This document shows positions 6,602-27,001 of a stretch of 32,000 nucleotides of DNA, one piece after another. Every line of letters begins with the position of its first letter. Position 1 is the stretch's first letter. The position numbers were made by a program, and so were the translations under genes. The notes below the pieces were generated by a model. The model was not told the DNA's origin and ran no database searches. It worked only from the letters and a program-made list of their open reading frames with translations. This DNA is from Candidatus Electronema halotolerans (lineage in GTDB: Bacteria; Desulfobacterota; Desulfobulbia; Desulfobulbales; Desulfobulbaceae): NCBI GenBank assembly GCA_942493095.1, contig OW818675.1, positions 1,320,001-1,352,000 of the forward strand. Reading direction: 5' to 3'.

Positions 6602-6815
6602 TTATTCTTTGACCACAGTCACGGTTTCCGCCTTGCCCCGCGCCCGGTACTCAGGCCGGTACATAGTCTCAACCTCTGAGGGCGGCAGGGCGTAGCTGCC
6701 TAGTGTGACCGCCAAGCTGGGCCTTTGCCAAGGGCGGGTCGATCTTGTCAAAGCGGGTTAACGGGCATCCTCATGCCGGGCTTGGCCAGCACCCAGTGCG
6801 CGTAAGCCAGCATTA
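6602..6815 (-). pseudogene. decayed, internally deleted remnant of an alpha-2-macroglobulin paralogue (3' end)
   Basis: 6602..6712 aligns by eye (~85-bp core with 6 mismatches) to the last ~110 nt of the intact A2M gene (15569..15680). The minus-strand reading is ...ALPPSEVETMYRPEYRARGKAETVTVVKE* versus ...ALPPSEVEAMYRPEYRARGKAGIVTVDKK*. 6713..6815 aligns with indels to 16603..16728. About 0.9 kb of intervening gene and everything upstream are missing. Confidence 0.75.
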
Positions 6816-6892
6816 CATCTCAAGTCCTTCTTTCTCAATGCTCTTTCTGGCAGAAGCAATTGCCTGTCTTAAAACAGAATACAAGAAACAGT

Positions 6893-8125
6893 TCAATCGT
6901 CTGCTGCATCAGCCAAGGCAAAGGAAATGCAGTCCTCCTGATGCAGGCGGGCGATCAGCTCCAGTCCCTGTTCACCGAACCTGTCCCGCAGCTCGGCCAA
7001 GGTGCTTTGCCCGTCCAAAGCATCCAGCACCGGCTTGGCAGTGAAATCAACTGGCACCGACCAATTATAGCGCATGACCAGATAGCCGAAGGATTCCTCT
7101 CTGAGGCGGAACTCGGCAACAGGCCGCCACGTTGGATCAAGCTGGATTGCTGGCGCATTCTCCTGAATCGGCCCGGTCATCAGCGGATCCTGCCCAAGAC
7201 CCAGTTCCAAGGCGAATGAGCGGTCGCCGCCCCGGCAGCGGGAAACAGCCGGGCATTGCAGGCAGGCCGGAGCAATGTGCTGGCGGTACTGCTGCGCCTG
7301 TTCAGACTGCCAGATTTCCGTGATGGGCTGCTCGAAGATGTTGCCGAACACCGTGCCGGTCAGGTTGTCCGGGCGGACAAGTCCTTGTGGCGAGATGGCG
7401 CAGTGTTCGATTCCGGCATTGGAACCCTCAGTGGAATTGGGGACAAAGCATTTGGGCACACAGTTGCCAATTCGGCAGGCCGTGCCCTCAGTGTGCAGCC
7501 GCTCAATCAGCAGCACCGCCTCCCGGAATTGCTCCACAGCAGGCTGGAGGGGATGCGCACCAGTGAGGAAACGGTTGAACACCGCATACCCGGCCCCCAG
7601 CTCCTGCGAGAGCCGGATAATCTCCTCAATCTGCGGACAGCTCTCTCGCGTCAGCACCGTGTTGGTGAAAACCTCAATGCCTGCCTCGGCAGCGCGCCGG
7701 ATATTGGCGCAGGTCTGGGCAAAGGCATCTGCATTGACCAAGGCGTTATGGGCCGCAGCAGTGCTTCCGTGCAGGCTGATGAGCAGGCCCAGACTGTTTT
7801 TCAAGCTGCGGCAGGTGGTAATGACAGCAGCAGGCACAGGCCAGCGGCCATTGCTGAACAGGACATGCGGAATGCCGAGCGTGTCAATATAGGAAATAAT
7901 TTGATGAAATTTCGGGTGCAGGGTGGGTTCGCCGCCGGTCAGACGGATCAGTTCAGCGTATTTTCTGGGATTTTCCGGCGGGGCGATGCGGTCGAAGAGG
8001 TCGCGCCAGTTGGTCAGGGTCTGCTGACGCTGCTGGCCCCAGACATTGGCGCAGCCTGAGCAGAAGTTGTTGCAGGCGTAGGTGAGTTCAACAGCATAAG
8101 AGAGCGGGGCTGAGGGGAAGAGCAT
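6893..8125 (-). CDS. radical SAM / SPASM-twitch domain peptide maturase with C-terminal PqqD-like (RRE) domain
   Basis: CNNFCSGC (Cx3Cx2C) at aa 18-25 and GGEPTLHP. Cys-rich auxiliary-cluster region CRIGNCVPKCF...CAISPQGLVRPDN...CLQCPAVSRC. The last ~90 aa (FGYLVMRYNWSVPVDFTAKPVLDALDGQSTLAELRDRFGEQGLELIARLHQ) resemble PqqD/RiPP recognition elements. Confidence 0.85.
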   Translation of the reverse strand: MLFPSAPLSYAVELTYACNNFCSGCANVWGQQRQQTLTNWRDLFDRIAPPENPRKYAELIRLTGGEPTLHPKFHQIISYIDTLGIPHVLFSNGRWPVPAAVITTCRSLKNSLGLLISLHGSTAAAHNALVNADAFAQTCANIRRAAEAGIEVFTNTVLTRESCPQIEEIIRLSQELGAGYAVFNRFLTGAHPLQPAVEQFREAVLLIERLHTEGTACRIGNCVPKCFVPNSTEGSNAGIEHCAISPQGLVRPDNLTGTVFGNIFEQPITEIWQSEQAQQYRQHIAPACLQCPAVSRCRGGDRSFALELGLGQDPLMTGPIQENAPAIQLDPTWRPVAEFRLREESFGYLVMRYNWSVPVDFTAKPVLDALDGQSTLAELRDRFGEQGLELIARLHQEDCISFALADAADD

Positions 8126-8128
8126 GAA

Positions 8129-8287
8129 TCAATTGCTGCCCAGCGCATAGAGGCCCTTTTTTCTCTTCTGCGCTTTCAAGACCGAGCGGTCGGCGGTTTT
8201 GCTCAGGACAACACGCACCGGGCAAGGAGCCGTCTGAGCAGCACCGTAATAGTCATGCAGGCAGCTTGCAGGCTTTGTCTTTTTCAT
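8129..8287 (-). CDS. small peptide B (52 aa), candidate RiPP precursor
   Basis: Hand translation: MKKTKPASCLHDYYGAAQTAPCPVRVVLSKTADRSVLKAQKRKKGLYALGSN*. The stop lies 3 nt before the radical SAM ATG. It is paralogous to peptide A (shared MK, YY, V[LV]L[ST], basic tract, [FY]ALGS[HN] end). The shared Ala and Leu codons differ synonymously (gcg/gcc, ctg/ttg). Too short for the ORF track. The SD is weak and distant (GGGAG 16 nt upstream). Confidence 0.5.
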   Translation of the reverse strand: MKKTKPASCLHDYYGAAQTAPCPVRVVLSKTADRSVLKAQKRKKGLYALGSN

Positions 8288-8311
8288 GCGGATCACTTCT
8301 CTGCTCCCGTA

Positions 8312-8482
8312 TCAGTGGCTGCCCAAGGCGAAGATATTTTTTCGATCTTTGCCGGATGCGTTTTTCTGTGCAGGCGCGTCACCATTGCTGGTCAGAAGAA
8401 CTTTTGTCCGGGACTGCTGGCGTTCCGGCAGGTCGTAATAGGACAGAGAAAATTGCGGCGGTGTTGTGGTATTATTTTTCAT
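8312..8482 (-). CDS. small peptide A (56 aa), candidate RiPP precursor
   Basis: Hand translation: MKNNTTTPPQFSLSYYDLPERQQSRTKVLLTSNGDAPAQKNASGKDRKNIFALGSH*. Its ATG overlaps the stop of the upstream 1463-aa gene (ATGAAAAATAA, 8472-8482). Paralogous to peptide B. Not in the ORF track. Confidence 0.5.
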   Translation of the reverse strand: MKNNTTTPPQFSLSYYDLPERQQSRTKVLLTSNGDAPAQKNASGKDRKNIFALGSH

Positions 8483-11400
8483 GTTGCAAGATCAAGCTCC
8501 TCAGGCGGATGAGCTGGAGGATGCTGTCGAGTTCTTCTTTTTTCTTCTGCAAGTGCTCACCATCCTGCCAGAGATGGCGGAAAATATCATGCAGAATGTC
8601 AAGAGATTCGCTGTCAGGGATCATTTCTATTCTGCGGCGCAGAACCCGCAGACCTGCTTCAAAGCTCAGGGAGTTATAGCCCGCCTTATAATTGCAGGCT
8701 TCAATATATTTTCGGAACATCTGCACAAGGTCTTTGCGTTCAACTGTTCTTCGTTCTCTGAATTTATACGAGGAAGAATCGTCGTCATTGCCAAATTTTT
8801 CCTCCATGCAGTAGCATTGACTGAAGAGAATATCTCCTTGAGTGATGCGGAACCGGGCGGCAACCCAATGATATTTATATCCCTCAACACTTATTTTCCC
8901 TTCTAACTTCTGCTCATACTTCTTAAAGTCATCTCTGTAATCATCTTTATCATATAGTCCAGAAAAATAAAGTGCATTCAAATAGCTTTGTTTTGCATCA
9001 TCAAGACGAAAATCTTTTCCACTTCTTTTGGATGTTTCAATACATTTTTTCAGGTAATCAAATGCCTCGGGAAATTTTTCCTGCATAATCATTAGTTCAC
9101 CTAGCTGAAAATAGACTTCAGGAAGTTTTTCGTGAATAATATTTTTTTCGGCACTATACTCTTCCAAGTTACCTTTTCCTGTTTTAAAAAAACGATACGC
9201 TTTTTCGAGATCACCTTGAAATTGTTTTTCAAATTTGTTTCGAGCTGCTTCCAGCTCATCAGCGACACTGTCCTCCAGCAGATTGATAAATTCACCTCGC
9301 CGGATATAATATTCACCCTCAATAATATCTGTCTGACCAGACAGTCCTTTTTTCAACCACGGGCTGGACATTTTTTCTATGAGTTTCCGAGCACGCTCAA
9401 ACGCCTGTCTCGCGTGGTGAAAATCTCCCATAAGACGATAGAGACGGCTCTGGCGATTCAACAGCAGGACAAGCTGCTCCAGATACTTTTCTTTATCCTC
9501 AGAATTTCCTGTGAAATGGAATTGTATCCAATAAAGTTCAGTCAGGCATTTATTCACCAGCACTCCTTTCCAATATGCTCCTGTATCCTCGCTTTCTTTA
9601 AGCTCCTCTTCAAGCTTTTTCAGTTCCTTAGGCTGAATTGCTTCTTGTTCCAGCAAACGGGCATATTCGAATATCCAGCTAAAATCCTTTATCTTACTTT
9701 TCCCTCTTGATTTTATTTCTTCCAAATTATCAAGCGTAAATGAAAAAGGCAGTTTCTCGCTCTGCTTTTTCTTGTATTGATCATTCGTAAGAGATGACAG
9801 AGGGGGATAATCACGCCGATTCGTCAGCCTGACTAAGCTTCTTAGGCGATTATAGATGACCAGCAGCATGAGATAATATTCATCTTGATTGAACTTCTTC
9901 TTCAAATTTGCTGCTTCAATATAACTGTCAAATGCTTCTTGCAACTGTTTAATGCCTGATGAAAAGTTACCTGACTTTAAAACCTCAACAGCTTCGTCAA
10001 ACTCCATATCACCAAGAATCAATTTATAACGACCAAATAAGTCAGGGAATTTTTTTAAATCAGGATGTTTTTTTATTTTATCTTTATATTCATTCCACTT
10101 TTTTATATTTTTCTTCTTCCGGTCTAATGGTAGATCATCTTCAGAGTAATTTCCAAAATAATATAAAACAAGAATACTTTCGAGGGTATCAAGAACACGA
10201 TATGAAAAATTAACTTTTTTCGCAGAACGTAAAGCCTTATGGAATTTCATTATGGCAGATTTCCATTCGTTTTGGATGTGTTTTACAGACATCATCATAT
10301 ACAACTCACCCAAGCTGAAACAGGCATCTGCTAATTCCTTGTAAAAAGCTGGTTTCTCCTCAAGACGATCTATAGCTTTTTTTGCATGGTCGATATAGTC
10401 ATCTATCCGCTCTCTATCAGACTGCTCCACGGGTTCCAGCTCCTTTGCCCGGTAATACTCAAGCAGATGGACAAATTCCCTATCGCCATAAAATAGCTGG
10501 CAGAAATTACTGTACACTCGGCCACCTAAAAGCCGGTCCGGTATTTTTTGATAGATTTTTTTCGCTTCTTCAAGATAATGACGAGCATCTATGTTGCGCC
10601 CGGCAATGACTAAAACATGCCCTAACGTATTCAAAGAACGAAATATTTCTTTTCTATTTCTTGGAAGATTCTGCACAATGCTGTATGCTGTTTCCGCATA
10701 TCGTATCGCTTGAAAAAATTTTCCTGTATAACGATAGAGTATGGCGAGATTGCCGAGCGCATATTGGATACACTGCTGCATATTTCGTTCTGTTCTCCTG
10801 TCTGCTCTCTGGCTCTGTGCTTTTTCCAGCCAATCCAGAAGTCCTTCCAAGGTTCTCTGCATCCATTGTTCTGCTTCAACAAAGTCGGCTTTTCTATATA
10901 AAGTGTATCCGATCCAGTTATTGGCAAGAAACAAATGAAAGAGAGAATCTTTATCATCATAATTAAAAAATATTTCACTGGACTCCTTTAAGAGATTGAT
11001 AGCGTCATTAAATTTTCCTGACTCAGAATAGGCAATTCCCTCCCACAGTTTAAATTTTCCGTAGAGTATAGAAAGTTCCTCTGAGCTGTCAGTAACCTGC
11101 TGTTTTTGTGCTGAATCTATTATACTCAACGCCCTTGAAAGATTCCTTTTATGGCCGTGGATATAATACTGCACCTCTCTTAAATTGAGTTCAAGTTCCC
11201 TGGGCAAAGACACGTCATATTCTGCGCAGTAACGTTCCGTTTCGCGTCCCAAAAGACCGGCGTAGGATGAGCGTCCGTCTTCCATTGCAGTGTCAAATTC
11301 TTCACAGAATCGCTGTACGCCTTGATCTGGATTTACCATAAAGGTATATTCAATCATCTCAGGCATATATACTTCACGCTTTTTTTGAGAGACATTCTTC

Positions 11401-15568: not shown

Positions 15569-18500
15569 TCATTTCTTGTCAACAGTTACAATCCCTGCCT
15601 TGCCCCGCGCCCGGTACTCAGGACGGTACATAGCCTCAACCTCTGACGGCGGCAGGGCATAGCTGCCTGGCGTGACCGCCCGCACCAAATAGGCAAAGCT
15701 GAAGGGCCGCACTGGATTGTTGCGTGTCAAGGGCTTGAGCTGCTCTGTGTCAAAGGCAACCACAAAGCGGTCGTCCCGCGCATCCGTGTAGCGGAAGGAA
15801 CTGAGTTCGGGCAGCCAGTCAAAGGCCTCGGCATCTTTGCCGCTCACCGCCTTTTCGATTTCAAAGCCCGCAGGCAGCAGATCAATCAGCAGGGCGTGAT
15901 AATTGCCGCCCTCTTTGGCCTCGCCTTCAACCAGCACCACAGCCAGCTCGCTTTGCGGCACCTTGTCCAAGGCCAGCGGCTCGCCTGCACTGCTGTACCA
16001 AGTCCGTTGGATTGTGAAGCCATTTTCCATTGGCGGCGGCTCGTTGGTCGGCGCGCCCTGCACGGTGAGCACTGCCCAGACTGCGACCTGTCCCTTGTTG
16101 CGCAAGGTCACGGGCTGATCAAGCAACGTGTCTCCGCTGCGGCTGAGGGAGAAGAAAGAGGATTCTTTTTTCTCTGTTACCGCTGGAGCAGCTTCCTCTT
16201 TTGGCGTGTCACTCCCCAAATTCATGGCGGAAAGAAAACGGCCCAAAAGCGAAGGACTCTCCGCCTCTGGTTTATTCTCCTGCGGTGCCGGGCTGGCCTC
16301 GGTGATTTCCAAATCCAAGGGCTGGCCCTTGTCCAAGGTCAGAGCGGCCATGATCAGAGCGGCCTGCTCCTGAGTGGAGAAATACTTGCGCTTGGAAAGT
16401 TGGCCGGTCAGTTCCTGCCACGCCGAAGCCGGATCAACCTGCGTCAGGCCGGTCTCGTCGAGCACACTGATGATTGCAGCCAGATCACGCAGGCGGGAGC
16501 CGTAGCTCCACCATGAGGCAGCCTCTGTGTCTGCCGAGCGCAGAGCTGCTTGCAAGCCTTTCATTGCCCGTTCCTGATCGCCAAGCAAAGCCAAGGTGCC
16601 AGCAAGCTGGGCTTGCGCCAGCGGCGAGCTAATTTTGTCAAAGCGGGTGTCAAAGAGATAGCGGGCATCCTCATGCCGAGCTTGGCCAGCACGGGCCAGC
16701 ACCCAATGCGCGTAGGCCAGTGCCTCAAGATGTTTGTCCTTCCTGTCGCTGTGCTTGACCTCGTCTGTCAGCCAGTCCAAACCTTTTTTGTAGAAATAGT
16801 CTGGCACGGCAAAGCCTTTTTCCCGCGCTCGGCCAAGAAAGTCCATAGCATAAGCCGAAAGCCACGGCTCTTCGTCATCGCTGTCTGACCAGAGACCAAA
16901 GCTGCCCTCGCCGCGCTGCTTCTGCAAAATCAGGTCAATAGCCGCCTGCACCCGGTCAGGCAGATTTTTGTCCGCTGGATAGGCAAAGCGTTCGGCAAGC
17001 TGATTGGCGTAGAGCAGAGGCATGGCCCGGCTGGTGAGCTGCTCCAAGCAGCCGTGCGGGTAGCGGTCCAGCTCGCCGAGTAGCCCGGCCACATCAACAT
17101 TGGGCGCGCTGGAAATGCTGAGATCAACCTTGGCTGTGGCCGGATGCAGACCACTCAGGGTCTCCTTGTTCAGGGTGAGGACTGCGCCCGGCTCAATTTT
17201 GCTGTAGGTGCGGGTTAAGGTCGGCAGATATTTGCCGCGCACATTGAGATCAAAGTCGCCTGCATAACTGTAGCCTTGCGGGCCGTTGACGAGCAGATGC
17301 AGCTTGCCGCTGCCAATGCCGGAAGCAGTCACTGGAAAGCTGAGGCTCTGCCGCCTGCCCTGCTCAAGCTGGACAACTGCCGCGCTTTGCTCCGGGCCAA
17401 GCAGCGTTACCGCGCCTTCAGCCCGCCATGATGCCTGATACTGACCTGCCGGGCCGTCAATGTTTTCGATCAACACCTGAATGCTGGACTGGTCGCCGTC
17501 TGCCAGATAGCGCGGCAGAGACGGGGAGATGACCACTGGATCATTGACCCGCATGGCTTGACTGGCCGCGCCGGTCTTTTCCTTTGACCAGGCCACGGCC
17601 ATCAGGCGCAGCTTACCGTTAAAGTCCGGGATGTCTAACGGCACCGTGACTGTGCCGTCATCGCCTGCCCTGACCACGCCGGAGAAGAGGGAAACCACCT
17701 TCACATTGGACTGCGGCGCACCGCGCAGACCATCTTCGCCAGCACCGCTGCGCAGAGTGAGCGGCTTGCTGTTTGGCGGAATGATGAGCTGGCCGTACAT
17801 GTCGCGGATGTCAAGACCGAGCTGCTGCTTGCCAAAGAACCAGTCAATCGGATTTGGCGAGACAAACTGGGTCAGCTGCAAAACTCCTTCATCCACAGCG
17901 GCCAAGGTCAGATGGATTTCGCTGCCTGCCTCTGCCCCCTTGACTGCAACCGGCACTGGCAAGACCTGCCGGGGCCGGGTCTGCTCCGGCGCATTGACGG
18001 TCAGTTCCAACCGCTGCGGAGCCGGATCAACTGGCAGCCAGATCAGGCCCACAGCCCGGTCTGCGCCCTTCTGCTGCCCCTTGCCGGGCCGATAGACCGT
18101 GACCAAGGCATAGACACCCGCGCCCCAGCCGTCCTCAACCGGAATCTCAATGGTCTGCTCCTTGCCGCTCAAGGCGAAGTTGCGCAGCCCGTTCACTGTG
18201 GTGTTGGCCAAGACCAGACTGGCTTGCCCCGGATACGGCGAGGTCAAGGTCAGTTTGGCAATGTCGCCGACCTTGTAACTCTGCCGGTCAAGCACCACTT
18301 TGACCGAATCCGGGGTGTCGCTCTCGCCGACAAGTTGCTCGCCCGCAGTGAAGTGCAGGCTGGTGAGCAGGATATTGTCCTTGTTCAACAGCTCCAGCCG
18401 GTATCTGCCCCAGTCCGTCGCAACGGCCAGCGGCACTGGCCCGGCCTTATCCCAAGCAAGCTGGCCGCGCTGCGCCTCCTGATCAAGAACGATCTCCTCA

Positions 18501-20992
18501 TAGCCCCATTCACCATTCTTGATGAACCACTGATAATCAATATCCTCGCGCACCAGCCGCCAGTGCATTTCGCCTTTCTCCTGCGGTTGGCCCTGCTCGT
18601 TCAGGGCAATGATTGCAAATTTAGCCTCACTTTGCTCAGGGATCTGCAAATCAGCAAAGTCTGGCTTGAGGCCCAGATATTCCTTGAGATGACGAACAGG
18701 CACACTGGTGGTTGCGGTCACGGCCCTGCCGTCAATATCCAAAACATCAGCCCGCACCACAGCCTTGAGTGGCTGAAGGGTGTTGAGCGGCTGGCCAGCC
18801 AAAGTCAGGGGCAGGATGCCGTGTCCTTTTGCATCGGTACTGATGTCCGGCAGCTCAATCGCAGCCAGACCCGGTTCCTCCTTGTCTCTGCCAAAATAAA
18901 AATCAGCAAAATCGGCAAAAGGATGGGGTTCATAGTGCAGCTCCATATTGGCTTTGACACTCAAATCCGAGCCGGGCGAGCCGTAGTAGTAATCCGCCTG
19001 CACCTCGGCTTCAGCCTTGCCTGTCGCACTGAGAATGCCTTGCGGCTCCAGCCGCACTTCCAAGCGCGGCGGCTTGAAGGATTTGACCTCAAAGCTCGTC
19101 TGTCCGACCGGCTTGGCTTCCACATCCGCATACAGGGCGGCAGTCCAGTTGCCGGAGCGGGCAGAATTGGCCAGATTTATGGTGTCTGCATAGCCGCCCG
19201 CAGAGTCAGGCTGAAGCAGCCGTTCAAGTAGCACCTTGCCGTCCGGGCCGCTGACCCGCAGGGTCATGGGTGGGCAGGCAGCATAACGGGCAATGCGGTC
19301 GCGGACAATCGCGGTCAGATGCACGCTCTCGCCGGGCCGGTAGATGCCGCGCTCCGTATAGAGATAGGCATCAAGAGGGCCTGGCGCAGTTCTACCGCTC
19401 ACACCCCGGTCACTGAGATCAAAGGGAGCCTGTTCGAGTTGGAGAAAGGTGAAGCCGTGCTTGCTGTCCAGAGCCATGAGATGCACAGCCGCTTGGCCGC
19501 CTTTACCTTTGAGCAGGCCAGGGGCAAAACGGACTATGCCCTGCTCATCCGTGCTCAGATTAGCCAACGGCGTATTGTTCTTCGCGTACAGGCCGATCTC
19601 CAACCCGGTAATGGGCAGAGCGGTCTCCAAGCTGCGGGCCGCCACGGTAAGACCGTCGCTGCCCTGATAGGTGGTCAGGCCAATGTCTGTGACCACAATC
19701 CATTGGCTGGCTTGATCTTCCCAGCGGCGTTCGTCTTCGTCGCCATCCTTGCTCTGCTCGGCAGACAGCACGTACAAACCCGGCGCAACAGCCAAGACAT
19801 CCTGCGGCAGCACCACATTGCTGGTCATGATCTTGTCCTGCGCCGGACTGGGAATTTCCGTTCTGCCCTGCCAGACCTCCTCGCCGACCGTCTCCTGAAT
19901 TTGGTCGAGCTGATACCCGCTCAGTTTGCGGCGAAAGTTGTTTTGGACAAACTCGCCCAGGATGTTGCGCTCATGAATGCGGAAGAGCTGGAGCTTGACC
20001 TTCTCGACATTCACCGAGTTCAGGCCAATGCCCCGGCTGCTGCGGTCAGCCAGAATGTAGTCACTTTGATTAAACCAGAGCGCGGGCGGGCGATGGCCGG
20101 TTGTAACGGTCAGGGTCACAGTCTCCGGCAGGGTGCGATTCTCCACCTTCATGCCGCTGCGCACGGTCACTTTATAGGAAGTGCCCCAGTCAGCCCCGCT
20201 GATGCAAAGCTGTCTATATCTGACTGAAAAATCAGCATTGACAGCCGGGCTGATCTGAATGTAGTCGCCGTAATGAAAGCTGTCCGGCTTGGGCAGCTCC
20301 TCATTGAAGCGCAGACAGAGCTTGGGCAGACTGCTGTCATTGTCTGTCGAGGTGCTCTGCACCTTCAAGGCATTCTCGGCAAGCTGCTTCCGCCGCAGCT
20401 CGGCCAGCCGCCTCTCCCGCTCTTCTTTCTGCCGTTTTTTCTCAGCAGTCAGCTCCTCTTTCTGCTGCTGCCGCAGACTGTCCGCCTTGCCGCTGTCATC
20501 GCCCAATTCCGCCAGCTGCTCATACACAGCGATGGCGGCAGGAGTCCAGTTGTCCTGCACTGTGGTGCGTTTTTCCAAGGCTTTGCCGAGCAGGGCAAGG
20601 GCCTGCTTTTGCATGTCTGGAACATCTGCGGCCTGCCACGCCAGCCAGCTACTCCAGCTCGCCTTTGGCCATTCCCCGTCGCAGGCAGCCGCTTTGGCAA
20701 AGGAGAGCCAGAAGGCTGCGTCTGTATTTTCTCCCAGCAAGACGGCCTGTTTGTGCAAGGTCATGGCTGTATAGCATTGATCCGCAGCGGTCATGATTGC
20801 CGCCGCTTGCATGAGGATGGCGGCCTGTTCCGATTCAGGCGGGGATGTGCCGGAACGGGCGTATTCAACAGCAAATTTTTTGCTTTCCTGCTTTATGTCC
20901 TGAAGGCTGTGGTCCGCCGCAGCGGCCAGTGTGGACAAGGAGCAAAAGCAGAGCAGGAGGAAGACAGCGGCGGTGCGGATGACTGATTTCAT
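15569..20992 (-). CDS. bacterial alpha-2-macroglobulin family protein (thioester-containing, 1807 aa)
   Basis: N-terminal signal peptide (AAVFLLLCFCSLSTLAAAAD), a long array of MG-type beta domains, and the thioester motif YPHGCLEQ (CLEQ encoded at 17039-17050). Size and C-terminal receptor-binding-like domain are as in YfhM/ECAM-type proteins. Confidence 0.9.
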   Translation of the reverse strand: MKSVIRTAAVFLLLCFCSLSTLAAAADHSLQDIKQESKKFAVEYARSGTSPPESEQAAILMQAAAIMTAADQCYTAMTLHKQAVLLGENTDAAFWLSFAKAAACDGEWPKASWSSWLAWQAADVPDMQKQALALLGKALEKRTTVQDNWTPAAIAVYEQLAELGDDSGKADSLRQQQKEELTAEKKRQKEERERRLAELRRKQLAENALKVQSTSTDNDSSLPKLCLRFNEELPKPDSFHYGDYIQISPAVNADFSVRYRQLCISGADWGTSYKVTVRSGMKVENRTLPETVTLTVTTGHRPPALWFNQSDYILADRSSRGIGLNSVNVEKVKLQLFRIHERNILGEFVQNNFRRKLSGYQLDQIQETVGEEVWQGRTEIPSPAQDKIMTSNVVLPQDVLAVAPGLYVLSAEQSKDGDEDERRWEDQASQWIVVTDIGLTTYQGSDGLTVAARSLETALPITGLEIGLYAKNNTPLANLSTDEQGIVRFAPGLLKGKGGQAAVHLMALDSKHGFTFLQLEQAPFDLSDRGVSGRTAPGPLDAYLYTERGIYRPGESVHLTAIVRDRIARYAACPPMTLRVSGPDGKVLLERLLQPDSAGGYADTINLANSARSGNWTAALYADVEAKPVGQTSFEVKSFKPPRLEVRLEPQGILSATGKAEAEVQADYYYGSPGSDLSVKANMELHYEPHPFADFADFYFGRDKEEPGLAAIELPDISTDAKGHGILPLTLAGQPLNTLQPLKAVVRADVLDIDGRAVTATTSVPVRHLKEYLGLKPDFADLQIPEQSEAKFAIIALNEQGQPQEKGEMHWRLVREDIDYQWFIKNGEWGYEEIVLDQEAQRGQLAWDKAGPVPLAVATDWGRYRLELLNKDNILLTSLHFTAGEQLVGESDTPDSVKVVLDRQSYKVGDIAKLTLTSPYPGQASLVLANTTVNGLRNFALSGKEQTIEIPVEDGWGAGVYALVTVYRPGKGQQKGADRAVGLIWLPVDPAPQRLELTVNAPEQTRPRQVLPVPVAVKGAEAGSEIHLTLAAVDEGVLQLTQFVSPNPIDWFFGKQQLGLDIRDMYGQLIIPPNSKPLTLRSGAGEDGLRGAPQSNVKVVSLFSGVVRAGDDGTVTVPLDIPDFNGKLRLMAVAWSKEKTGAASQAMRVNDPVVISPSLPRYLADGDQSSIQVLIENIDGPAGQYQASWRAEGAVTLLGPEQSAAVVQLEQGRRQSLSFPVTASGIGSGKLHLLVNGPQGYSYAGDFDLNVRGKYLPTLTRTYSKIEPGAVLTLNKETLSGLHPATAKVDLSISSAPNVDVAGLLGELDRYPHGCLEQLTSRAMPLLYANQLAERFAYPADKNLPDRVQAAIDLILQKQRGEGSFGLWSDSDDEEPWLSAYAMDFLGRAREKGFAVPDYFYKKGLDWLTDEVKHSDRKDKHLEALAYAHWVLARAGQARHEDARYLFDTRFDKISSPLAQAQLAGTLALLGDQERAMKGLQAALRSADTEAASWWSYGSRLRDLAAIISVLDETGLTQVDPASAWQELTGQLSKRKYFSTQEQAALIMAALTLDKGQPLDLEITEASPAPQENKPEAESPSLLGRFLSAMNLGSDTPKEEAAPAVTEKKESSFFSLSRSGDTLLDQPVTLRNKGQVAVWAVLTVQGAPTNEPPPMENGFTIQRTWYSSAGEPLALDKVPQSELAVVLVEGEAKEGGNYHALLIDLLPAGFEIEKAVSGKDAEAFDWLPELSSFRYTDARDDRFVVAFDTEQLKPLTRNNPVRPFSFAYLVRAVTPGSYALPPSEVEAMYRPEYRARGKAGIVTVDKK

Positions 20993-21126: not shown

Positions 21127-22710
21127 CTATTTCCGCCAGCGACTGACCGCCAGCTCCAGTTTTTGAAGAAAAACTTTCAGCTCAGGAGAAGCATTGAGCT
21201 GGAGCAGCTTGCGTACAACCAAACGCAAAAAGTCTTCCTCTTGATATTGAAACTCGCGGGCCAAGTCATACATCATATTTTTATAGATGTTGCCGGGCTT
21301 GTCCGCAGCATTGCTGTATGCCTGCTGAATTTTTTGCATTGTGGTTACAATCAGCTCACCCGCCTCGCTGCGTTCCATAAGTTCGCCGACTTGCTGCTTG
21401 TTTGCTTCCAGAGCTTTCCAGAGAAATGGTTCCGGGCCAGATTCACCGGGGAGAAAAAGCGGCTCAATCAGAAACCCGCCGAATTCCTTTGCCTCCGCCC
21501 GCAGCGTCCCGTCTAAATTACGGGCATCGCCATCCAAGACAAAAAGAGTGCTGTCCAACTGCCCAACTTTGCCGAAGGCGCGGACATGTTCGGCAAACTG
21601 ATTTTTCCCAGTATCAGTTCCAATCAATATATCGTTGGTATGCAAGCCAAGTTTTGGCATCAGCACATCCATGCAGCCATGCAGCACGGCTTTGGCTTCC
21701 GAGTCCTCACAAATAATGCTGAGTTTGTTCAATGCCTGACCGTACAGCACACGTTGCAGCACATCTTGATAGGCAGGCTTGAGCACAACATTCCGATAAT
21801 CACTGCTGCGCTCCAAAAAAATGCGGGCCTCTCTGGGAACAGATTCCAGCACTGCCGGACTGTGGGATGTGACCACGATCTGCAAATCGTTGCGCAAGGC
21901 CAGCCGTTGCAGCTCAAGCATGAGCTGCTGCTGCGTGTAAGGATGCAGGCCAGCCTCCACTTCGTCAATCAGCACCAAGGTGTTTTGAAGATTCGAGAGC
22001 TGCATGGAAAGCCGCAAGATAGTCCGCTCGCCTGATGACATGTGAAACTCGGAATAGCGTCCGCTGGCATCCGACCGTTCCGCCACCAGCAGGTCGCGTC
22101 CTCCAGAAATTATTTTGTTCATCCGCACATATTTAAAAGGCAGCACATTTTGGGCAAAGGCTATCAGGTCTGCGGTCACCTCCTGAATTTTTTCATATCT
22201 GGCACCTATGTTCAATACACTCCGCACTTCGCCGGGATTGGAGAGATTGGCCAATGTGCGCACAATCACTTCGCGTTGAGGCTGACGGACTCCCTTTTTC
22301 CCCTGAAAATTTGGATTCCATCCCTTTGTCAGCCGCCGCCAAGTCATTGGCAGCGGTCCCGAAGGAGTGTTGAACAGGTAGCTGATTTCAGCTTTAGTTA
22401 TTTGGTCGTCCAAGTCTTCCCCGCCATCTGTCCTCCTGTTTCTGAAGTTGGGAAAAAGCGTGGCAGGCTTAAAATCACGCAACCCGGAACCGGGCACATC
22501 ATACGCGCAGGCCAAAGCCATCAGCACGGTCGTCTTGCCACAGGCATTTGGTCCTGCCAAGACAGCAACCGGATAATTGAACTCAATGATCAAGTCTTCA
22601 ATACCGCGCAAATTTTTAATCCGAACCTGCCGGAGCATATCCTGCTGCGGATTTCTTTTTCCTCTCAACTGATCCCAAATCTGCTCTAAATTACGCTGCA
22701 AGGAAGACAT
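21127..22710 (-). CDS. OLD-family / PARIS-like ABC-type ATPase fused to a Toprim-like nuclease domain
   Basis: Walker A AGPNACGKTT, ABC signature-like MSSGERTILRL, Walker B LVLIDEVEAGLHP, and a His-loop region VTSHSP. The C-terminal region has Toprim-like acidic motifs: IICEDSEAK (Glu) and LFVLDGDARN (DxD). Confidence 0.65.
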   Translation of the reverse strand: MSSLQRNLEQIWDQLRGKRNPQQDMLRQVRIKNLRGIEDLIIEFNYPVAVLAGPNACGKTTVLMALACAYDVPGSGLRDFKPATLFPNFRNRRTDGGEDLDDQITKAEISYLFNTPSGPLPMTWRRLTKGWNPNFQGKKGVRQPQREVIVRTLANLSNPGEVRSVLNIGARYEKIQEVTADLIAFAQNVLPFKYVRMNKIISGGRDLLVAERSDASGRYSEFHMSSGERTILRLSMQLSNLQNTLVLIDEVEAGLHPYTQQQLMLELQRLALRNDLQIVVTSHSPAVLESVPREARIFLERSSDYRNVVLKPAYQDVLQRVLYGQALNKLSIICEDSEAKAVLHGCMDVLMPKLGLHTNDILIGTDTGKNQFAEHVRAFGKVGQLDSTLFVLDGDARNLDGTLRAEAKEFGGFLIEPLFLPGESGPEPFLWKALEANKQQVGELMERSEAGELIVTTMQKIQQAYSNAADKPGNIYKNMMYDLAREFQYQEEDFLRLVVRKLLQLNASPELKVFLQKLELAVSRWRK

Positions 22711-22815: not shown

Positions 22816-22865
22816 GCCTCACAGCACTGCCGTCACCGTGTTGCTCGGCCCGCTCTCACCTGCTT
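22816..22865. repeat. direct repeat copy 2 (3' end of FN3-tail ORF)
   Basis: Matches 21062..21115. Here it encodes ...NKAGESGPSNTVTAVL* in frame. Confidence 0.85.
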
Positions 22866-23103
22866 TGTTGACCGCGATGACCCGATATTTCCACTCCTTG
22901 CCGTGCTCCTGATTGTTCAGGGTGATCTCTGTTGCCAAGGCGGTGGGAACGCGGAGGTCAAAATTTCCTGAATAGCTGCGGCGCGGATTGATGCCTTTCT
23001 CCTTGCAGACCTCCAAGAACACAGCAAGCGACTTGCGGAATTCCGCCCGCAGCTCGTCAGGCGTGCGGCCAGAACCGTCATGATATTCATGGTTCCACTC
23101 CAT
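22819..23103 (-). pseudogene. chimeric remnant: N-terminally truncated HicB-like antitoxin fused to a fibronectin type III C-terminal fragment
   Basis: aa 15-55 (DELRAEFRKSLAVFLEVCKEKGINPRRSYSGNFDLRVPTAL) resemble the central part of HicB-family antitoxins (...YSGKFNLRI...). The last ~25 aa (KYRVIAVNKAGESGPSNTVTAVL) are a typical FN3 G-strand ending. No hicA, no HicB N-terminal domain and no RHH tail are present. Confidence 0.45.
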
Positions 23104-23311: not shown

Positions 23312-25189
23312 ATGGCATCACGTGATTTAGAGATTATCAAGAAAATAGAAAAAGAACTGAATCAGAATCTGCGCAGAGTTGATAAACTTGGATCAAAACG
23401 CTTCTGTTATATTGCTGATGAGCAGGATCAAGTCACCGTCCTGCGGTTAAGTGAAGCTGGTCTCGCCAATTCTAATATATATTTTCATCTCTTTAAAGAG
23501 CTTACTAATCTTAAAACATTCGATCTAAGCTTTAATCAAATCAATGATATTTCCTTTCTCAAAGACATGAGCTATCTTCAGACGCTCAATTTAAGTCTCA
23601 ATCAGATCAGTGATGTCTCCTCTCTGAAAGAACTCTATCATCTTAAAACTCTTAATTTAAGTTCAAATCAAATTAGCGATATTTCATTTCTCAAAGATAT
23701 TGTCCATCTTCAGTGGCTAAATTTAAGTTTTAATAAGATCAAAGATATTTCATTTCTCAAAAATCTTATCCAACTTCAGACACTCAATTTATGGAATAAT
23801 CAGATCATCCGCTTGCCGGAATGGATTACAGAGTTGTTCCCTGAGATTGTCTGTTCTGATTATTTTGAAGTTTACAAAATCAACGTCGGTAATAATCCCC
23901 TGACCCATCCGCCGCCAGAAATCATCAACCAAGGCCGCGAAGCCATCCGCGCCTATTTCCGCTCCTTTGAAAAAAGCGAAGCTGTCAAATTGCACGAATC
24001 CAAAGTGCTGCTGGTTGGCGACGGCAAGGCCGGAAAAACCTCGCTGCTCAAACAGTTCCAAGGACTGGACTTTGATGAGCATGAATCCCAAACCCACGGC
24101 ATAAATGTCCAGCCGCTTTCAGGCAGTGAGATAGCAGGTTTTGCCAATCCTGACCAAGACTGCCGCCTCCATTTCTGGGATTTCGGCGGGCAGGAAATCA
24201 TGCACGCCTTGCACCGCTTCTTCATGAGCAACCGCTCGCTGTACATCCTTGTCTTGGACAGCCGCGACGACACTGGCAGATGCTGCTGGCGTTGGCTCCG
24301 GCACATTGAGAAGTACGGCGGCCAGTCGCCGCTCATCGTGGCCATGAACAAGATTGATGCCAACCCGTCCTTCAATCTCGAACAGAAGAGCATCAATGTC
24401 CGTTTCTCTCAGATCGAAAACCGCTTCTTCCGCATCTCTTGCAAAAATAAGGACGGCCTGCCGGAATTAGTGCGCAGCATGGCCGCATCTGTGCCGAAAA
24501 CTCCGCTGTACGGCTTTGAAATCAGCAAAGCATGGCTGGAAATCAGGAAACAGCTCGAAGCGGCAACCGGCGCGCAGAACTATATCAGCCAGGAGCAGTT
24601 CATTGCCATCTGCAAAGAACACGGGGTTGAGGACGAGACAAGCCGAATCACCCTCCTCAAGCTGTTCAATGACTTGGGTACCTTGCTCTTTTTCGAGCAG
24701 ATAAAACTGGCTGACATTTATGTCCTTGATCCGCACTGGGTGACGGTCGGGGTCTATAAAATCATCAACTCAGCCCGAACCAAGGACGGAATCCTGCACG
24801 AGGAGGATTTGGATTTCATCCTCAAGCAGGAGGATATCCGCTGCGATGAATATGACCCGGCCAAAGAGAAATGCTTTACCTACACCGTCCAAGAGCAGGC
24901 ATATCTTGTCCGCATCATGGAGGAGTTTGAGCTGTGCTACCGCTATGACAAGCATCAGCATATTCTGCCCAATCAGCTTCCCAAGGAGCCGGAACAGGAA
25001 CCAAAGCTGACAGGTGAACATCTGCTCGGCTTTGTCATGGAATATGACTATCTGCCTTCTTCGTTCTTTTCCCGCCTCATGGTCCGCTTGAAGGAAGATA
25101 TTCCAGACCGGCGGCGGCAGTGGCGGTACGGGATGTATCTCGAAAACAAGCAATTCGGCGTGGAAGCAATTATAGCGGTTTCGTATTGA
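23312..25189 (+). pseudogene. Roco-family protein (LRR - Roc GTPase - COR), 5' part, interrupted by IS630 element at 25172/25173
   Basis: Six to seven ~22-aa LRRs (LxxLNLSxNQIsDISFLKxL). Roc G-domain motifs: G1 GDGKAGKTS, G3 WDFGGQE, G4 NKID. COR-like region follows. The reading frame runs into the IS and stops after 6 IS-derived codons. Confidence 0.85.
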
Positions 25190-26217
25190 ACAGATATCAA
25201 ACCCAGCAATGACGGAAAAACGATTTGATTGATTTTGACTTAACCGTTTTCAGAGATATATCATAAGCTTCCATCAGCTCACGCTCTGTTCTCGGCTTCA
25301 ATTTTCTTATAGTGTTTTTCATTACTGACCAGCAGTATTCAATAGGGTTCAGTTCAGGACGATAAGGAGGGAGGAAAATGATCTTCGCTCCTGTACTTCT
25401 GATCAAAGCGAGAGCTTCTTTGTTTTTATGAGGACTGGCATTGTCAAGAACGACTGTCTTGCTGCTGTCAAGATATTTCAAAAGATAATTTTTTATATAG
25501 AAATAAAAGACATCTCCTGTCATGGTGCCTTTAAATTTCATGCACTTCAATATTTTTCCAAACTTTACAGCTCCTATCATGCTTATTCTTTTCCCTTTAC
25601 CTGAAGGTCTTTTTGAAAAAGCTCTTGTTCCTTTTCTTGATCTTGCAAATTTTCTCGACATGTTCAAACAGCATCCTGTCTCATCAATAAAGATGAAATT
25701 CTTTTTGTCAGCCTCGAGCAGGCCTGCAAGGTAATTAACTGTCTTTGCTATATTTTCCTCTTTATACGCCGCCGGATCGCGGAAAGTTTTTTTTTCCGGC
25801 TGATTTTCAGTCTGGCGAGAGTTTCGCACAGCGTGGAAGGTGCTATTTTTAAATTGAATTTCTCGTATAAGCGATCACACATCTCTTCAAGCGTAAGATC
25901 GTTCTCGTCATCAATCATGCTGGTCAGAAAAGGCATATGAACTTCCTTGATTTTCGGAGGATTTCCGCCTTTATGAGGCTTCGGCTCAAGCGTCCCCTCA
26001 GTCTTCCATCTTTTTACAAGACTTTGAACAAATTTATAGGAAACGTCAAGCAAATCTGCAGTTCTTCTCAATGATTTCTGTTTTTCATAAACAGACAAGA
26101 CTTTCTTTCTGAAATCAATAGAATAAATCATGGCAGACCTCCGTGTGTAAAAAAATGGAAAAAACAGACAAGTCAAGTTTAATCTTTTTCTGATAACCAT
26201 ACAACCTGAAACCGCTA
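25173..26217 (-). mobile_element. IS630/Tc1-mariner family insertion sequence
   Basis: Imperfect terminal inverted repeats both start TAGCGGTTTC (25173-25182; reverse complement of 26208-26217). Flanked by a TA duplication (25171-25172 and 26218-26219), the hallmark IS630 target. Encodes an HTH plus DDE transposase in two overlapping frames. Confidence 0.9.
25197..26131 (-). CDS. IS630 family transposase (two frames joined by a putative -1 frameshift at the A9 run)
   Basis: ORFa starts MIYSIDFRKK at 26131 (GGAGG upstream) and contains the HTH region. ORFb has DDE motifs IFIDETG, VVLDNASPHK and PPYRPELNPIEYCWS. ORFb is in the -1 frame relative to ORFa. They overlap around CGG AAA AAA AAA C (T-run 25787-25795 on the plus strand). 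A slip gives ...LKISRKKK-KTFRDPAAYKEE... Confidence 0.85.
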
Positions 26218-26219
26218 TA

Positions 26220-27001
26220 TCAGGATGCAGGAGCAGGCAAACAGGATTACAATCAGCATTCAAGGCGGGCTGCACAGCAAAAGGCAGTATCTGGCTGTGA
26301 TCCGAGACGCTATTTCAAGACTTGGCTTTCAGGAGCTGAAACCGAAAGAGCTGGTTGAATTGCCCGGACATCCTGATACATTTGTAGAGTATGAAGAGCT
26401 GCTCGGTTATAAGCGGGCCGGAAGAGATGAATATTTTCACGGGAGATTAGGGAAGGCTTTCTCTGTCTCTGAACTGTTGGATAGTGTTGTCAGTAAGGAA
26501 GAACGAATAAAGGAAGGGAGAAATGTTATGAGTGTATCATTTAACAATATTGGCAATCCGCAGGTGCATCAGAATGTGCATCAAACCAACACGCAGACGA
26601 ACAGCCAGCAGCAGTCTGTTGATTTGCTCAATCAACTCAGAGAAGCGCACGGGCTGTTCCGCAATCTGAAAGAAGATATCCTTGCAGAGGCGGATATTGA
26701 AATCGAGGATGAAAAGGAAAAGAAACGGGTTCAGAATGAGCTGGACAAGGCGGAAAAGGCCCTGACTGAGGCGGAAAGCGCGGCTGAACAGGGAAAGGAA
26801 CTGGATGCTGCGACAAAAAGCCGCTTGGAGGAATTCTTCACCAGCCTTGCCGACAAAAGCTCCCGCCTCGGCAAAGCCTTGGAATTTGTTGATCAAGGAA
26901 CAAGAAAGATGCAGGAACTGGCCCGGACGTATAACAAGGTTGCGGCAAACATCGGCCTGCCTGCTGTGCCGCCGCTCCTGCTGGGGCAGGAGAAGGAATG
27001 A
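26220..27001 (+). pseudogene. Roco-family protein, 3' part (COR C-terminal segment plus Q/N-rich and coiled-coil tail)
   Basis: Removing 25173..26219 (the IS plus one TA) joins ...GVEAII to RMQEQANRITISIQGGLH... in frame. The ITISIQGG...LAVIRDAISRL segment looks like COR-B. Confidence 0.8.

Follow-up and report, generated by a model that had tools for sequence, protein, structure and literature searches.

What, if anything, is encoded in the spacer between a gene for a tetratricopeptide-repeat (TPR) protein and a gene for a radical S-adenosylmethionine (SAM) enzyme in Candidatus Electronema halotolerans? The question arose from a 32,000-nucleotide (nt) stretch of contig OW818675.1 (assembly GCA_942493095.1, positions 1,320,001 to 1,352,000 of the forward strand), referred to below as the window. 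From the letters alone, the spacer had been proposed to carry two unannotated, tandem paralogous peptide genes, A and B, whose products might be substrates of the radical SAM enzyme (hereafter the original prediction). The analysis reported here indicates that A and B are probably precursors of an undescribed family resembling post-translationally modified peptides of ribosomal origin (RiPPs), accessory to a conflict system built on ATPases of signal transduction that have numerous domains (STAND) of the kind found in nucleotide-binding leucine-rich repeat (NLR)-like proteins. The system is conserved across phyla as an accessory peptide module of such NLR-like STAND proteins. Because the operon also carries a module of Trypco1/Pepco and a trypsin-like protease, we regard it as conflict- or immune-like and not as a conventional secreted natural-product cluster.

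Coding status of the two peptide genes

The spacer measures 346 nt from the stop of the TPR gene (8472) to the start codon of the radical SAM gene (8125). The coordinates and translations first proposed for A and B were reproduced letter for letter, with both genes on the minus strand (Table 1). They are co-oriented with the radical SAM gene and lie directly upstream of it in a compact arrangement: the first part of A and the end of the TPR gene share 11 nt, a gap of 24 nt lies between A and B, and 3 nt separate the B stop codon from the radical SAM ATG. The same peptide-then-radical SAM order was found in L161–L164, L166, L168 and L171 (the numbers L001–L171 label the comparison loci that were fetched). 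A GTG codon at 8296, three codons upstream of the B ATG, is an alternative start without orthologue support; the orthologues all begin M[KRE]K. As to their being unannotated, no family name or function has been assigned to either peptide, although some GenBank Electrothrix genomes do call both as 'hypothetical protein' (for example Q3M24_13740 and Q3M24_13745 of Ca. E. aestuarii).

A and B are indeed paralogous (BLASTP of A against B, single comparison, E = 8e-5), and the synonymous difference seen earlier in their Ala-Leu codons is real: the tail of A is encoded by ttc gcc ttg ggc agc cac and that of B by tat gcg ctg ggc agc aat, so that gcc ttg stands against gcg ctg. Among orthologues, the ratio of nonsynonymous to synonymous divergence (dN/dS, Nei-Gojobori) was 0.16–0.33 for A and 0.12–0.47 for B, at dS values of 0.5–1.6. 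Both peptides evolve under purifying selection, and the selection on the protein that had been argued from the codons is thus seen across the orthologues.

A search for homologues, as had been suggested with the original prediction, was productive. When A, B and the initial orthologues were combined into a profile, it retrieved 46 protein clusters from 5.8 billion sequences, with E values reaching 6e-21. Each is an unnamed 'hypothetical protein', and the sources are Ca. Electrothrix, Desulfobulbus sp. US4 and related metagenomes. An index-free hidden Markov model (HMM) search of 1.84 billion representatives gave 25 matches at E <= 1e-3, 19 of which are short family peptides; the other six are long proteins (445–1229 residues) with multi-stretch matches and were taken as spurious. 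A later protein-database search with a broad peptide alignment yielded only five new peptides. Orthologues of A in L161, L162, L163 and L171, together with those in many database clusters, end in ..K[NG]IFALGSH, and NIFALGSH is unchanged in all listed A-type sequences but one (database sequence P0166, ..KGIFALGSH). Every B-type sequence ends in ..KG[LIM]YALGS[NH], and the middle of both types varies freely. A and B were found as a pair in the window, L161, L162, L163/L164, L171 and L001; B stands beside A only in loci of Electrothrix and Desulfobulbus sp. US4, and L082 has a single B-like peptide without A.

These results bear directly on the possibility that the spacer is a non-coding structured leader in which both open reading frames (ORFs) are accidental. 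The weak ribosome-binding sites (GGAG 14 nt before the A start, AGAGAAG 8 nt before the B start) would fit such a reading. However, a scan of positions 7900–8700 matched no Rfam family, and the idea of a structured RNA was dropped; the C-termini are invariant in more than 40 sequence clusters; dN/dS lies well below 1 while synonymous divergence is saturating; and the start/stop overlaps are typical of translational coupling. Stop codons or frameshifts in the orthologous spacers, which the original prediction had named as evidence to the contrary, were looked for, and the ORFs proved intact in the orthologues. With intact and conserved reading frames, near-invariant tails, low dN/dS and no Rfam match, the non-coding reading is effectively refuted, and A and B are almost certainly genuine protein-coding genes.

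No named family accommodates them. Pfam, NCBIfam and PADLOC scans of A and B found no family (none at E <= 1 in NCBIfam), and the neighbouring enzyme likewise reached no NCBIfam equivalog, in line with the earlier remark that the motif belongs to no named RiPP family. Full-text literature searches for the tail motifs returned no paper in which the motif is relevant to this peptide family, and searches on the peptide motif, this radical SAM family or a cable-bacteria system of this kind returned no publication.

A bipartite peptide family and its putative maturase

Family members were gathered from the index-free HMM search, from loci with radical SAM orthologues, and by an HMM scan of small ORFs in the fetched loci. 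The N-terminal half of their consensus reads M-K-x(6-10), [FY]-x-L-[SA]-[FY]-[YF], x(8-10)-[VI]-[KR]-[VI]-x-L, and the C-terminal half consists of a basic tract ending in KK followed by x-[ILV]-[FY]-[AGTM]-L-x-S-[HNSG](G/A)-COOH. A dibasic site directly before the invariant tail is conserved in almost all members. Peptide A is a precursor-type peptide of the ancestral 'F-A-L-x-S-H' kind; further tails are VFALTSH, LFALESH, IFMLESHG, VFALSSSG, AFTLGSH, IYGLSSS, IFALESSA, IFALDSH and IFALNSH, and the hosts of this wider family include other Desulfobacterota, the KSB3 bacterium UASB270 and a Cloacimonetes metagenome-assembled genome (MAG).

Peptides that precede more distant radical SAM orthologues (35–50% identity) keep the N-terminal motif (FRLSYF, FRLEYFP, LRLQFFP, MRLDFFP, LRLSFF), while their tails differ (..TSILKSH, ..FL[IV]RLRSD, ..CDCAC[LT]G[RQ]K, ..QCNCACK, ..DNDCACE, ..NSADACR, ..DSECEV). 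The layout is therefore bipartite: the N-terminal motif is shared across subfamilies, and family members have an invariant tail but a variable linker. As judged from the alignments, this would be the signature of a leader for a conserved enzyme domain joined to a lineage-specific core. Because the N-terminal motif is kept in distant loci with unrelated cores, the YY motif singled out in the original prediction is best assigned to the leader. It is conserved, as had been said, but it belongs to the leader recognition motif [FYL]-x-L-x-[YF]-[YF] and is probably not a modification site. The domain that recognizes it would be the RiPP recognition element (RRE)-like domain of the maturase described below.

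The conserved tail constrains the chemistry that can be envisaged. All main-family members have the [FY]-[AGTM]-L triplet, which the L003 and L099 subfamilies lack at this position. There is no Cys in A, and the Cys residues of B lie in the leader, where orthologues have N, S, T, Y or R instead; as had been argued before, thioether chemistry is thus unlikely in this clade, and a Cys-free peptide argues for C-C chemistry instead. The sactipeptide/ranthipeptide option was accordingly dropped, as the core offers no conserved Cys donors. In the alignment, F-A-L-G-S stands opposite F-F-V-Q-C, F-Y-V-Q-C, L-S-L-D-C and I-S-V-G-C of Chloroflexi peptides, a weak hint that the invariant Ser may be positionally equivalent to Cys in the latter. 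Peptides with Cys-rich tails precede radical SAM orthologues in L008, L009, L015, L088, L090, L092, L094, L103 and L107. These peptides of Chloroflexota and other distant orthologues look like a sister precursor family, for which thioether chemistry would be plausible on the basis of their sequences.

The enzyme encoded directly downstream of B has a CxxxCxxC motif (C18/C22/C25) and seven cysteines in the SPASM region (C217, C222, C226, C242, C288, C291 and C297); among 27 homologues, C18, C22, C25, C226, C242, C288, C291 and C297 are invariant. No NCBIfam equivalog reached its cutoff (best AhbD, 73 bits, and MftC, 71 bits), and sequence searches of the Protein Data Bank (PDB) matched PqqE (85.6 bits) and SkfB. 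An AlphaFold2 (AF2) model built with the 27 homologues had a predicted local distance difference test score (pLDDT) of 92, and its best Foldseek matches were SuiB, SkfB, PqqE and anSME (E 1.7e-15 to 1e-11, identity 14–21%). The C-terminal domain of the model has four strands, two helices and one strand. When this domain was modelled by itself (pLDDT 83), its Foldseek matches were almost exclusively RREs, namely TruD, the PbtF RRE, McbB, PqqD, ThcOx, LynD, lasso B1, SuiB, CteB and MccB, with a TM score of 0.66–0.68 and a root-mean-square deviation (rmsd) of 2.7 for the PbtF RRE. We therefore provisionally describe the enzyme as a peptide maturase with a predicted, fused C-terminal RRE-like domain. 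A and B are very probably substrates of this adjacent radical SAM/SPASM enzyme.

A metagenome scan with the radical SAM alignment returned few close relatives, only L081 and L082 being at least 50% identical. Residues 301–307 of the maturase, just past the last SPASM Cys, read D-R-S-F-A-L-E-L-G and resemble the substrate tail F-A-L-G-S. The likeness is probably a coincidence, although the stretch could be an auto-inhibitory pseudo-substrate.

A peptide module tied to a probable STAND conflict operon

The TPR gene of the original prediction encodes a STAND (NLR-like) ATPase, and the peptides are part of a larger operon. From 15297 downwards, the minus strand carries Trypco1, a protease-NTPase, the STAND-TPR ATPase, A, B and the maturase (Table 1); 21 nt separate Trypco1 from the protease-NTPase gene, which overlaps the STAND-TPR gene by 8 nt. 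The translation of the latter shows a Walker A motif (GDGGVGKT), and Pfam gave AAA_16 at 28 bits (below the cutoff of 32.6), a weak NB-ARC match and TPR_12 at 76.9 bits; in the L161 orthologue, NB-ARC scored 39.7 bits against a cutoff of 23.5. Pfam detected no helix-turn-helix or other DNA-binding domain in the STAND-TPR protein. Its best NCBIfam match was FxSxx_TPR (NF040586), which reached 36.4 bits against a cutoff of 300 through the TPR repeats only, and HaaT followed at 18 bits. In the protease-NTPase, Trypsin_2 scored 34.6 bits (cutoff 27.6), with weak AAA_22 and NPHP3_N matches; its N-terminus resembles the Avs1b protease, and TAGHV, DFAV and GYSGS supply the His, Asp and Ser motifs. 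In L163, L166 and L168, a gene of its own encodes the NTPase part (about 505 residues). The operon genes scanned contained no metallopeptidase domain, the sole peptidase being trypsin-like.

Table 1. Peptide genes, peptide motifs and co-oriented operon genes in the window
Feature	Positions	Strand	Basis and remarks
Peptide A, 56 residues	8312..8482	minus	ORF list; ATG start; MKNNTTTPPQFSLSYYDLPERQQSRTKVLLTSNGDAPAQKNASGKDRKNIFALGSH
Peptide B, 52 residues counted from ATG	8129..8287	minus	ORF list; MKKTKPASCLHDYYGAAQTAPCPVRVVLSKTADRSVLKAQKRKKGLYALGSN
Leader motif FSLSYY of A (residues 11–16)	8435..8452	minus	[FYL]-x-L-x-[YF]-[YF], aligned across subfamilies with unrelated cores
Leader motif CLHDYY of B (residues 9–14)	8246..8263	minus	Y-L-x-x-Y-Y kept in all B orthologues
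Proposed core of A, NIFALGSH (last 8 codons)	8315..8338	minus	Follows conserved basic pair [RQK]K; putative core
Proposed core of B, GLYALGSN (last 8 codons)	8132..8155	minus	Follows conserved KK/RK; nearly invariant in B orthologues
Radical SAM/SPASM putative maturase, 410 residues	6893..8125	minus	Pfam Radical_SAM 46.3 bits and SPASM 35.5 bits, both above cutoff
Predicted C-terminal RRE-like (PqqD-fold) domain of the maturase, residues ~334–403	6917..7126	minus	Predicted structure and Foldseek
STAND (NLR-like) P-loop ATPase with long TPR array, 1463 residues	8472..12863	minus	Walker A, AAA_16, NB-ARC, TPR_12
Trypsin-like serine protease fused to a second STAND-type P-loop NTPase, 682 residues	12856..14904	minus	Trypsin_2
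Trypco1/Pepco small protein, 123 residues	14926..15297	minus	Pfam PF19493, 47 bits against a cutoff of 24.6

On its effector side, the operon has a genuine Trypco1/Pepco-protease module. In NTP-dependent conflict systems of multicellular bacteria, Trypco1/2 (also named Pepco) was defined as the partner of trypsin-like peptidases (PMC7159879). Pepco was later shown experimentally to be a beta-barrel pore protein that is activated through C-terminal cleavage by a STAND-fused trypsin-like protease; in the one characterised case the cut falls after Ile and not after a basic residue (bioRxiv 10.1101/2025.11.14.688446). By analogy, the protein encoded here is a predicted protease-activated, pore-forming death effector.

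The link between the peptides and the STAND-TPR gene extends well beyond the window. A STAND-TPR homologue was found by tblastn directly upstream of peptide and radical SAM gene in 21 fetched loci, the large ORF that ends just before the radical SAM gene had AAA_16 and TPR matches in all nine distant loci tested (Chloroflexota and other phyla), and the STAND-TPR-then-radical SAM order is conserved into Chloroflexota, Bacteroidota and other phyla. The STAND-TPR gene is usually preceded by a second, NACHT-like NTPase of about 505 residues. The gene before this NTPase changes from locus to locus: Trypsin_2 in L163 and L171, a fused trypsin in the window, TIR_2 with an unknown protein of 240 residues in L168, and an unknown protein of 236 residues in L166. 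A RelA_SpoT protein is also encoded directly downstream of the radical SAM gene in L166 and L168, loci of one metagenome. RelA_SpoT and TIR_2 are possible alternative effectors of the same system, and such swapping of effectors between loci is typical of conflict and immune systems. The RelA_SpoT-family (alarmone-synthetase-like) genes occupy 8301–9428 in L166 and 8249–9337 and 12376–13467 in L168; a TIR_2 protein heads one operon of the L166/L168 type (L168 1–136).

At the level of individual genes, the peptide start overlaps the TPR stop by 4–26 nt in the window, L161, L163, L166, L168, L170, L171, L002 and L167, an arrangement in which the peptides would be translationally coupled to the STAND-TPR gene. 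L002 and L167 keep the peptide together with the TPR gene, the radical SAM gene lying elsewhere in the cluster, and L165 (Desulfobacterales HSG2) has two consecutive STAND-TPR genes, each with its own 3' peptide, and one radical SAM gene. The peptide is thus tied more tightly to the STAND-TPR gene than to the radical SAM gene. The two L165 peptides (2637–2855 and 6790–6990) have the tails ..KAFALSSS and ..KVFALSSSG. In L162 (6489–7629; Ca. Electrothrix aestuarii CP159373), the overlap of TPR gene and peptide A is broken by about 1.1 kb, and the inserted stretch, with an ORF of 229 residues and a related 65-residue fragment (..PYTVKDY[FL]REVTL..), looks like a mobile-element insertion.

A mechanism can be proposed from these elements. 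The leader, with its [FY]xLS[YF]Y motif and beta-strand-like [VI]K[VI]xL segment, would dock on the C-terminal RRE-like domain of the radical SAM/SPASM enzyme, which would then abstract a hydrogen atom in the peptide tail. The most likely product would be an intramolecular crosslink in the aromatic-A-L-x-S segment that closes a small C-terminal macrocycle, either of the C-C cyclophane type (aryl to Leu or Ser C-beta) or of a C-O type involving Ser. Such crosslinks are favoured because A has no Cys, the Cys of B is not conserved, and F/Y, the small residue, L and S are invariant; alternatively, the tail could undergo oxidation at Ser or epimerisation. Gene context would place this reaction in a two-NTPase STAND/TPR conflict system whose output is the trypsin-like protease and the Trypco1/Pepco pore. 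The modified peptide would most likely act inside the cell or filament as a ligand or signal read by the STAND TPR array, or else as an amplifying toxin. An intracellular partner is preferred to a secreted antibiotic on four grounds: the spacing between motif and free carboxylate is fixed, peptide and TPR genes are coupled, neither an exporter nor a leader peptidase is conserved, and the core is invariant. Modification of the tail by the radical SAM enzyme, its chemistry and the effect of the peptide on the STAND protein are steps that we infer, and the proposal that the product acts on or through the STAND-TPR protein is a tentative one. More doubtful is a specific form of it, in which the STAND receptor is regulated by its own radical SAM-crosslinked peptide, with the TPR array as reader of the modified C-terminal octapeptide. 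Such a peptide could then be a 'modified-self' ligand that keeps the receptor poised or a diffusible alarm between filament cells, and the readout could be activation of the protease and the Pepco pore, or of TIR or RelA-SpoT effectors in other lineages. If this were true, RiPP chemistry would reach beyond antibiotic production to become part of immune and cell-death signalling, and uncharacterised FxSxx-type 'peptide-processing' modules would gain a testable function.

Several observations weigh against this picture. The tail aromatic is lost in the L003 and L099 subfamilies (TSILKSH, LIRLRSD), which keep L-x-S, and this weakens the case for a cyclophane on [FY]-A-L. In the SPASM region, the fourth Cys of CX2CX5CX3C is absent and position 301 is Asp, so that the set of auxiliary clusters is atypical and the analogy with specific enzymes uncertain. 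The RRE assignment comes from predicted structure at modest Foldseek E values (7e-3 to 0.3), and no sequence-level PqqD match was obtained with Pfam (one sequence and 17 homologues) or a PDB profile search. PADLOC gave no match for the STAND protein, the protease or Trypco, and for the radical SAM enzyme only a weak pVip match via the shared radical SAM core. A TauE/SafE-family permease gene 449 nt downstream of the radical SAM gene leaves export possible at this locus. Finally, L169 has a TPR gene and peptide with no radical SAM gene within about 9 kb downstream, and L170 has the same, with only about 1.1 kb of downstream sequence available; such pairs might point to a peptide that works unmodified. 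The peptides in question lie at 5534–5701 in L169 and 6744–6911 in L170, both from a Desulfobacteraceae MAG, and a Zn_ribbon_8 protein is encoded after the TPR and peptide pair.

The most conventional alternative is that the radical SAM enzyme matures A and B into an exported bacteriocin, two-component antimicrobial or quorum signal, and that the STAND-TPR protein merely regulates or scaffolds biosynthesis, as do TPR proteins in some cyclophane clusters (FxsT, HaaT). A precursor next to an RRE-containing radical SAM/SPASM enzyme is the standard RiPP layout, the two paralogous precursors recall two-component systems, and RiPP-system proteins are the best NCBIfam matches of the TPR protein, but these matches score far below their cutoffs and no DNA-binding domain that would suit a regulator was detected by Pfam. 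The permease downstream would supply an export route, yet given its distance, and its absence from every other locus examined, TauE was dropped as a dedicated exporter. Nor was any conserved exporter, ABC transporter, C39 peptidase or leader peptidase found, the genes downstream of the radical SAM gene being different in every locus. The cores are near-invariant and not diversifying, and the operon holds a Pepco and protease death module whose counterparts are swapped between loci. On balance, secretion as a conventional RiPP appears unlikely.

The same death module suggests a different role, in which A and B are pro-effectors that the trypsin-like protease, once activated by STAND, cuts past KK/RK; the toxin would be the released (modified) tail of 7–8 residues or the basic N-terminal part, comparable to protease-activated Pepco, gasdermin and MBL effectors. 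The dibasic site placed right before the invariant tail would suit such a cut, a protease of the appropriate type is encoded in the operon, and it is established that modules of this kind activate small effectors through site-specific proteolysis (bioRxiv 10.1101/2025.11.14.688446). However, many peptide, TPR and radical SAM loci have no trypsin-like domain called in the region read, with TIR, the unknown proteins of 236–240 residues or RelA_SpoT in its stead; the expected substrate of the protease is Trypco1/Pepco, and the characterised cleavage does not follow a basic residue; and A and B are hydrophilic and, for toxins, very short. We consider this role still less probable than secretion, and for the same reasons (the expected Trypco1/Pepco substrate and the many loci without a trypsin domain) the protease is only a minor candidate for leader peptidase. 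TPR domains commonly bind C-terminal peptides, as in the Hsp70/90 EEVD and PEX5-PTS1 interactions, and A and B might accordingly be unmodified inhibitors or adaptors of the STAND-TPR ATPase that bind through their free C-termini, with the radical SAM enzyme acting elsewhere. That the peptide gene follows the TPR gene where the radical SAM gene is separated (L002, L167 and the first pair of L165), and the radical SAM-less pairs of L169 and L170, would agree with this. Against it, the radical SAM enzyme has a domain of the peptide-recognition type, and its conserved neighbourhood offers no second candidate substrate; the leader motif accompanies the enzyme across phyla, with cores that change; B and the radical SAM gene are translationally coupled; and where a genome has a radical SAM-less pair, the enzyme may be provided in trans, as in L165. 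An unmodified partner is thus quite improbable, and modified precursors tied to a STAND conflict system remain the preferred reading.

The significance of the locus lies in this combination. It defines a previously unnamed, compact and conserved precursor family with the tail [FY]-A-L-x-S-[HN]-COOH and its own radical SAM/SPASM enzyme, and the Cys-independent chemistry expected of it makes it a direct target for enzyme discovery. The pair of peptide and radical SAM enzyme is physically tied to NLR-like STAND/TPR ATPases in at least five phyla; a comparable association is known only for FxSxx-COOH systems, where it was predicted solely by computation, and literature searches on radical SAM enzymes and STAND NTPases returned nothing on this system. 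With six genes and two 8-residue cores, the locus is tractable for studying radical SAM-modified peptides as ligands or signals of immune-type receptors. Several host lineages, cable bacteria included, are filamentous multicellular bacteria, and the system may bear on the coordination of cell death in them.

Other genes of the window lie around the operon. Directly upstream of Trypco1 and on the same strand is a protease-inhibitor gene (15569–20992, minus) for a bacterial alpha-2-macroglobulin of 1807 residues with bMG3, bMG5, bMG6, bMG10 and A2M bait-region domains. An AAA_21/AAA_15 (AbiEii/OLD-like) ATPase (21127–22710, minus) and a HicB-family antitoxin (22819–23103, minus) are also encoded near the STAND operon, and together with an IS66 transposase (1239–2747, plus) they suggest a mobile or defence-island-like neighbourhood. 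A gene for an LRR-Roc-COR GTPase (23312–27001) is apparently split by an insertion sequence: its 5' ORF (625 residues, 23312–25189, plus) ends inside COR-B at profile positions 3–50, its 3' ORF (258 residues, 26225–27001, plus) resumes COR-B at profile positions 54–144, and a DDE_3 transposase gene (25197–25829) lies between the halves on the opposite strand. Further along, the large subunit of a ribonucleotide reductase (27904–31464, minus) has an intein splicing domain within the barrel domain and a C-terminal TSCPD domain.

Comparison with known systems

Among characterised radical SAM peptide systems, mycofactocin shares a core located at the C-terminus and a radical SAM/SPASM maturase, MftC, to which the enzyme described here is detectably similar (71 bits). 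However, this score is to be set against a cutoff of 265, none of MftB, MftD, MftE and MftF was found among the neighbouring genes scanned, the RRE-like domain is fused here and the RRE separate there, and the tails end in GSH or GSN in place of the C-terminal Val-Tyr. The mycofactocin-like chemistry raised in the original prediction was therefore dropped.

The structures and sequences nearest to the maturase core are those of SuiB, PqqE, SkfB and anSME, all of which have a peptide or a protein as their substrate. C-C crosslinks are the products of SuiB and PqqE, and anSME accepts Ser or Cys at the same position, a tolerance that parallels the apparent equivalence of Ser and Cys between the cable-bacterial F-A-L-G-S and F-F-V-Q-C or L-S-L-D-C of Chloroflexi. 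Identity to these enzymes is only 14–21%, their substrates are unrelated, the fourth Cys of the CX2CX5CX3C motif is replaced by Asp here, and none of the streptide, PQQ, SkfA/SkfB and anSME systems is linked to STAND NTPases.

The triceptides (XyeB, GrrM, FxsB, HaaB) have an aromatic-X-X triplet in a conserved core, as in [FY]-A-L, and a radical SAM/SPASM maturase, and TPR proteins occur in some of their clusters (HaaT model). From the sequence of the tail, triceptide-like chemistry on [FY]-A-L, which the original prediction had suggested, would be possible. On the other hand, the maturase matches no cyclophane synthase model among the reported NCBIfam matches, its RRE-like domain is C-terminal whereas SuiB and CteB, which the domain resembles structurally, have N-terminal RREs, a single motif at the extreme C-terminus takes the place of repeated motifs, and distant subfamilies lose the aromatic while keeping L-x-S.

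On the effector side, the closest counterparts are the Pepco-protease modules of Avs-type STAND systems (bioRxiv 10.1101/2025.11.14.688446), which likewise have Trypco1 directly upstream of a STAND-fused trypsin-like protease, an order of genes for which protease-activated pore formation was demonstrated by experiment. The modules described so far contain neither a radical SAM enzyme nor a small modified peptide. In the window, by contrast, the protease-NTPase lacks sensor repeats and is followed by a second, TPR-bearing STAND protein, and no PADLOC/Avs model scored above threshold.

The closest known analogue of the locus as a whole is the FxSxx-COOH system, which consists of the FxsA peptide, the FxsB radical SAM/SPASM enzyme and the FxsT AP-ATPase/TPR protein (Haft's NCBIfam models). 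Kaur, Burroughs, Iyer and Aravind (2020; PMC7159879) placed modules of FxSxx-COOH peptide, radical SAM-SPASM enzyme and AP-ATPase-TPR protein in conflict systems and predicted the peptide to be a toxin or signal. Membership in that system fails. The FxSxx-COOH tail is F-x-S-x-x-COOH, whereas that of the present family is [FY]-A-L-x-S-[HN]-COOH and has no match to the FxsA model; the maturase is not FxsB-like, FxsB being outside its 25 best NCBIfam matches, which are all below cutoff; and the FxsT model falls as far short for the STAND-TPR protein as stated above. A zincin-like metallopeptidase releases the C-terminal peptide there (PMC7159879) and has no counterpart in the operon genes scanned here, no vWA-MoxR (VMAP) core was seen in the operon, and the hosts are Desulfobacterota and other non-actinobacterial phyla. 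The likeness is one of architecture: both systems have a small, fast-diverging peptide with a motif of an aromatic residue and Ser anchored at the free C-terminus, an adjoining radical SAM/SPASM gene and an obligatory link to a STAND/AP-ATPase with C-terminal TPRs, and both stand within NTP-dependent conflict systems that are enriched in multicellular bacteria and use trypsin/Trypco-type effectors.

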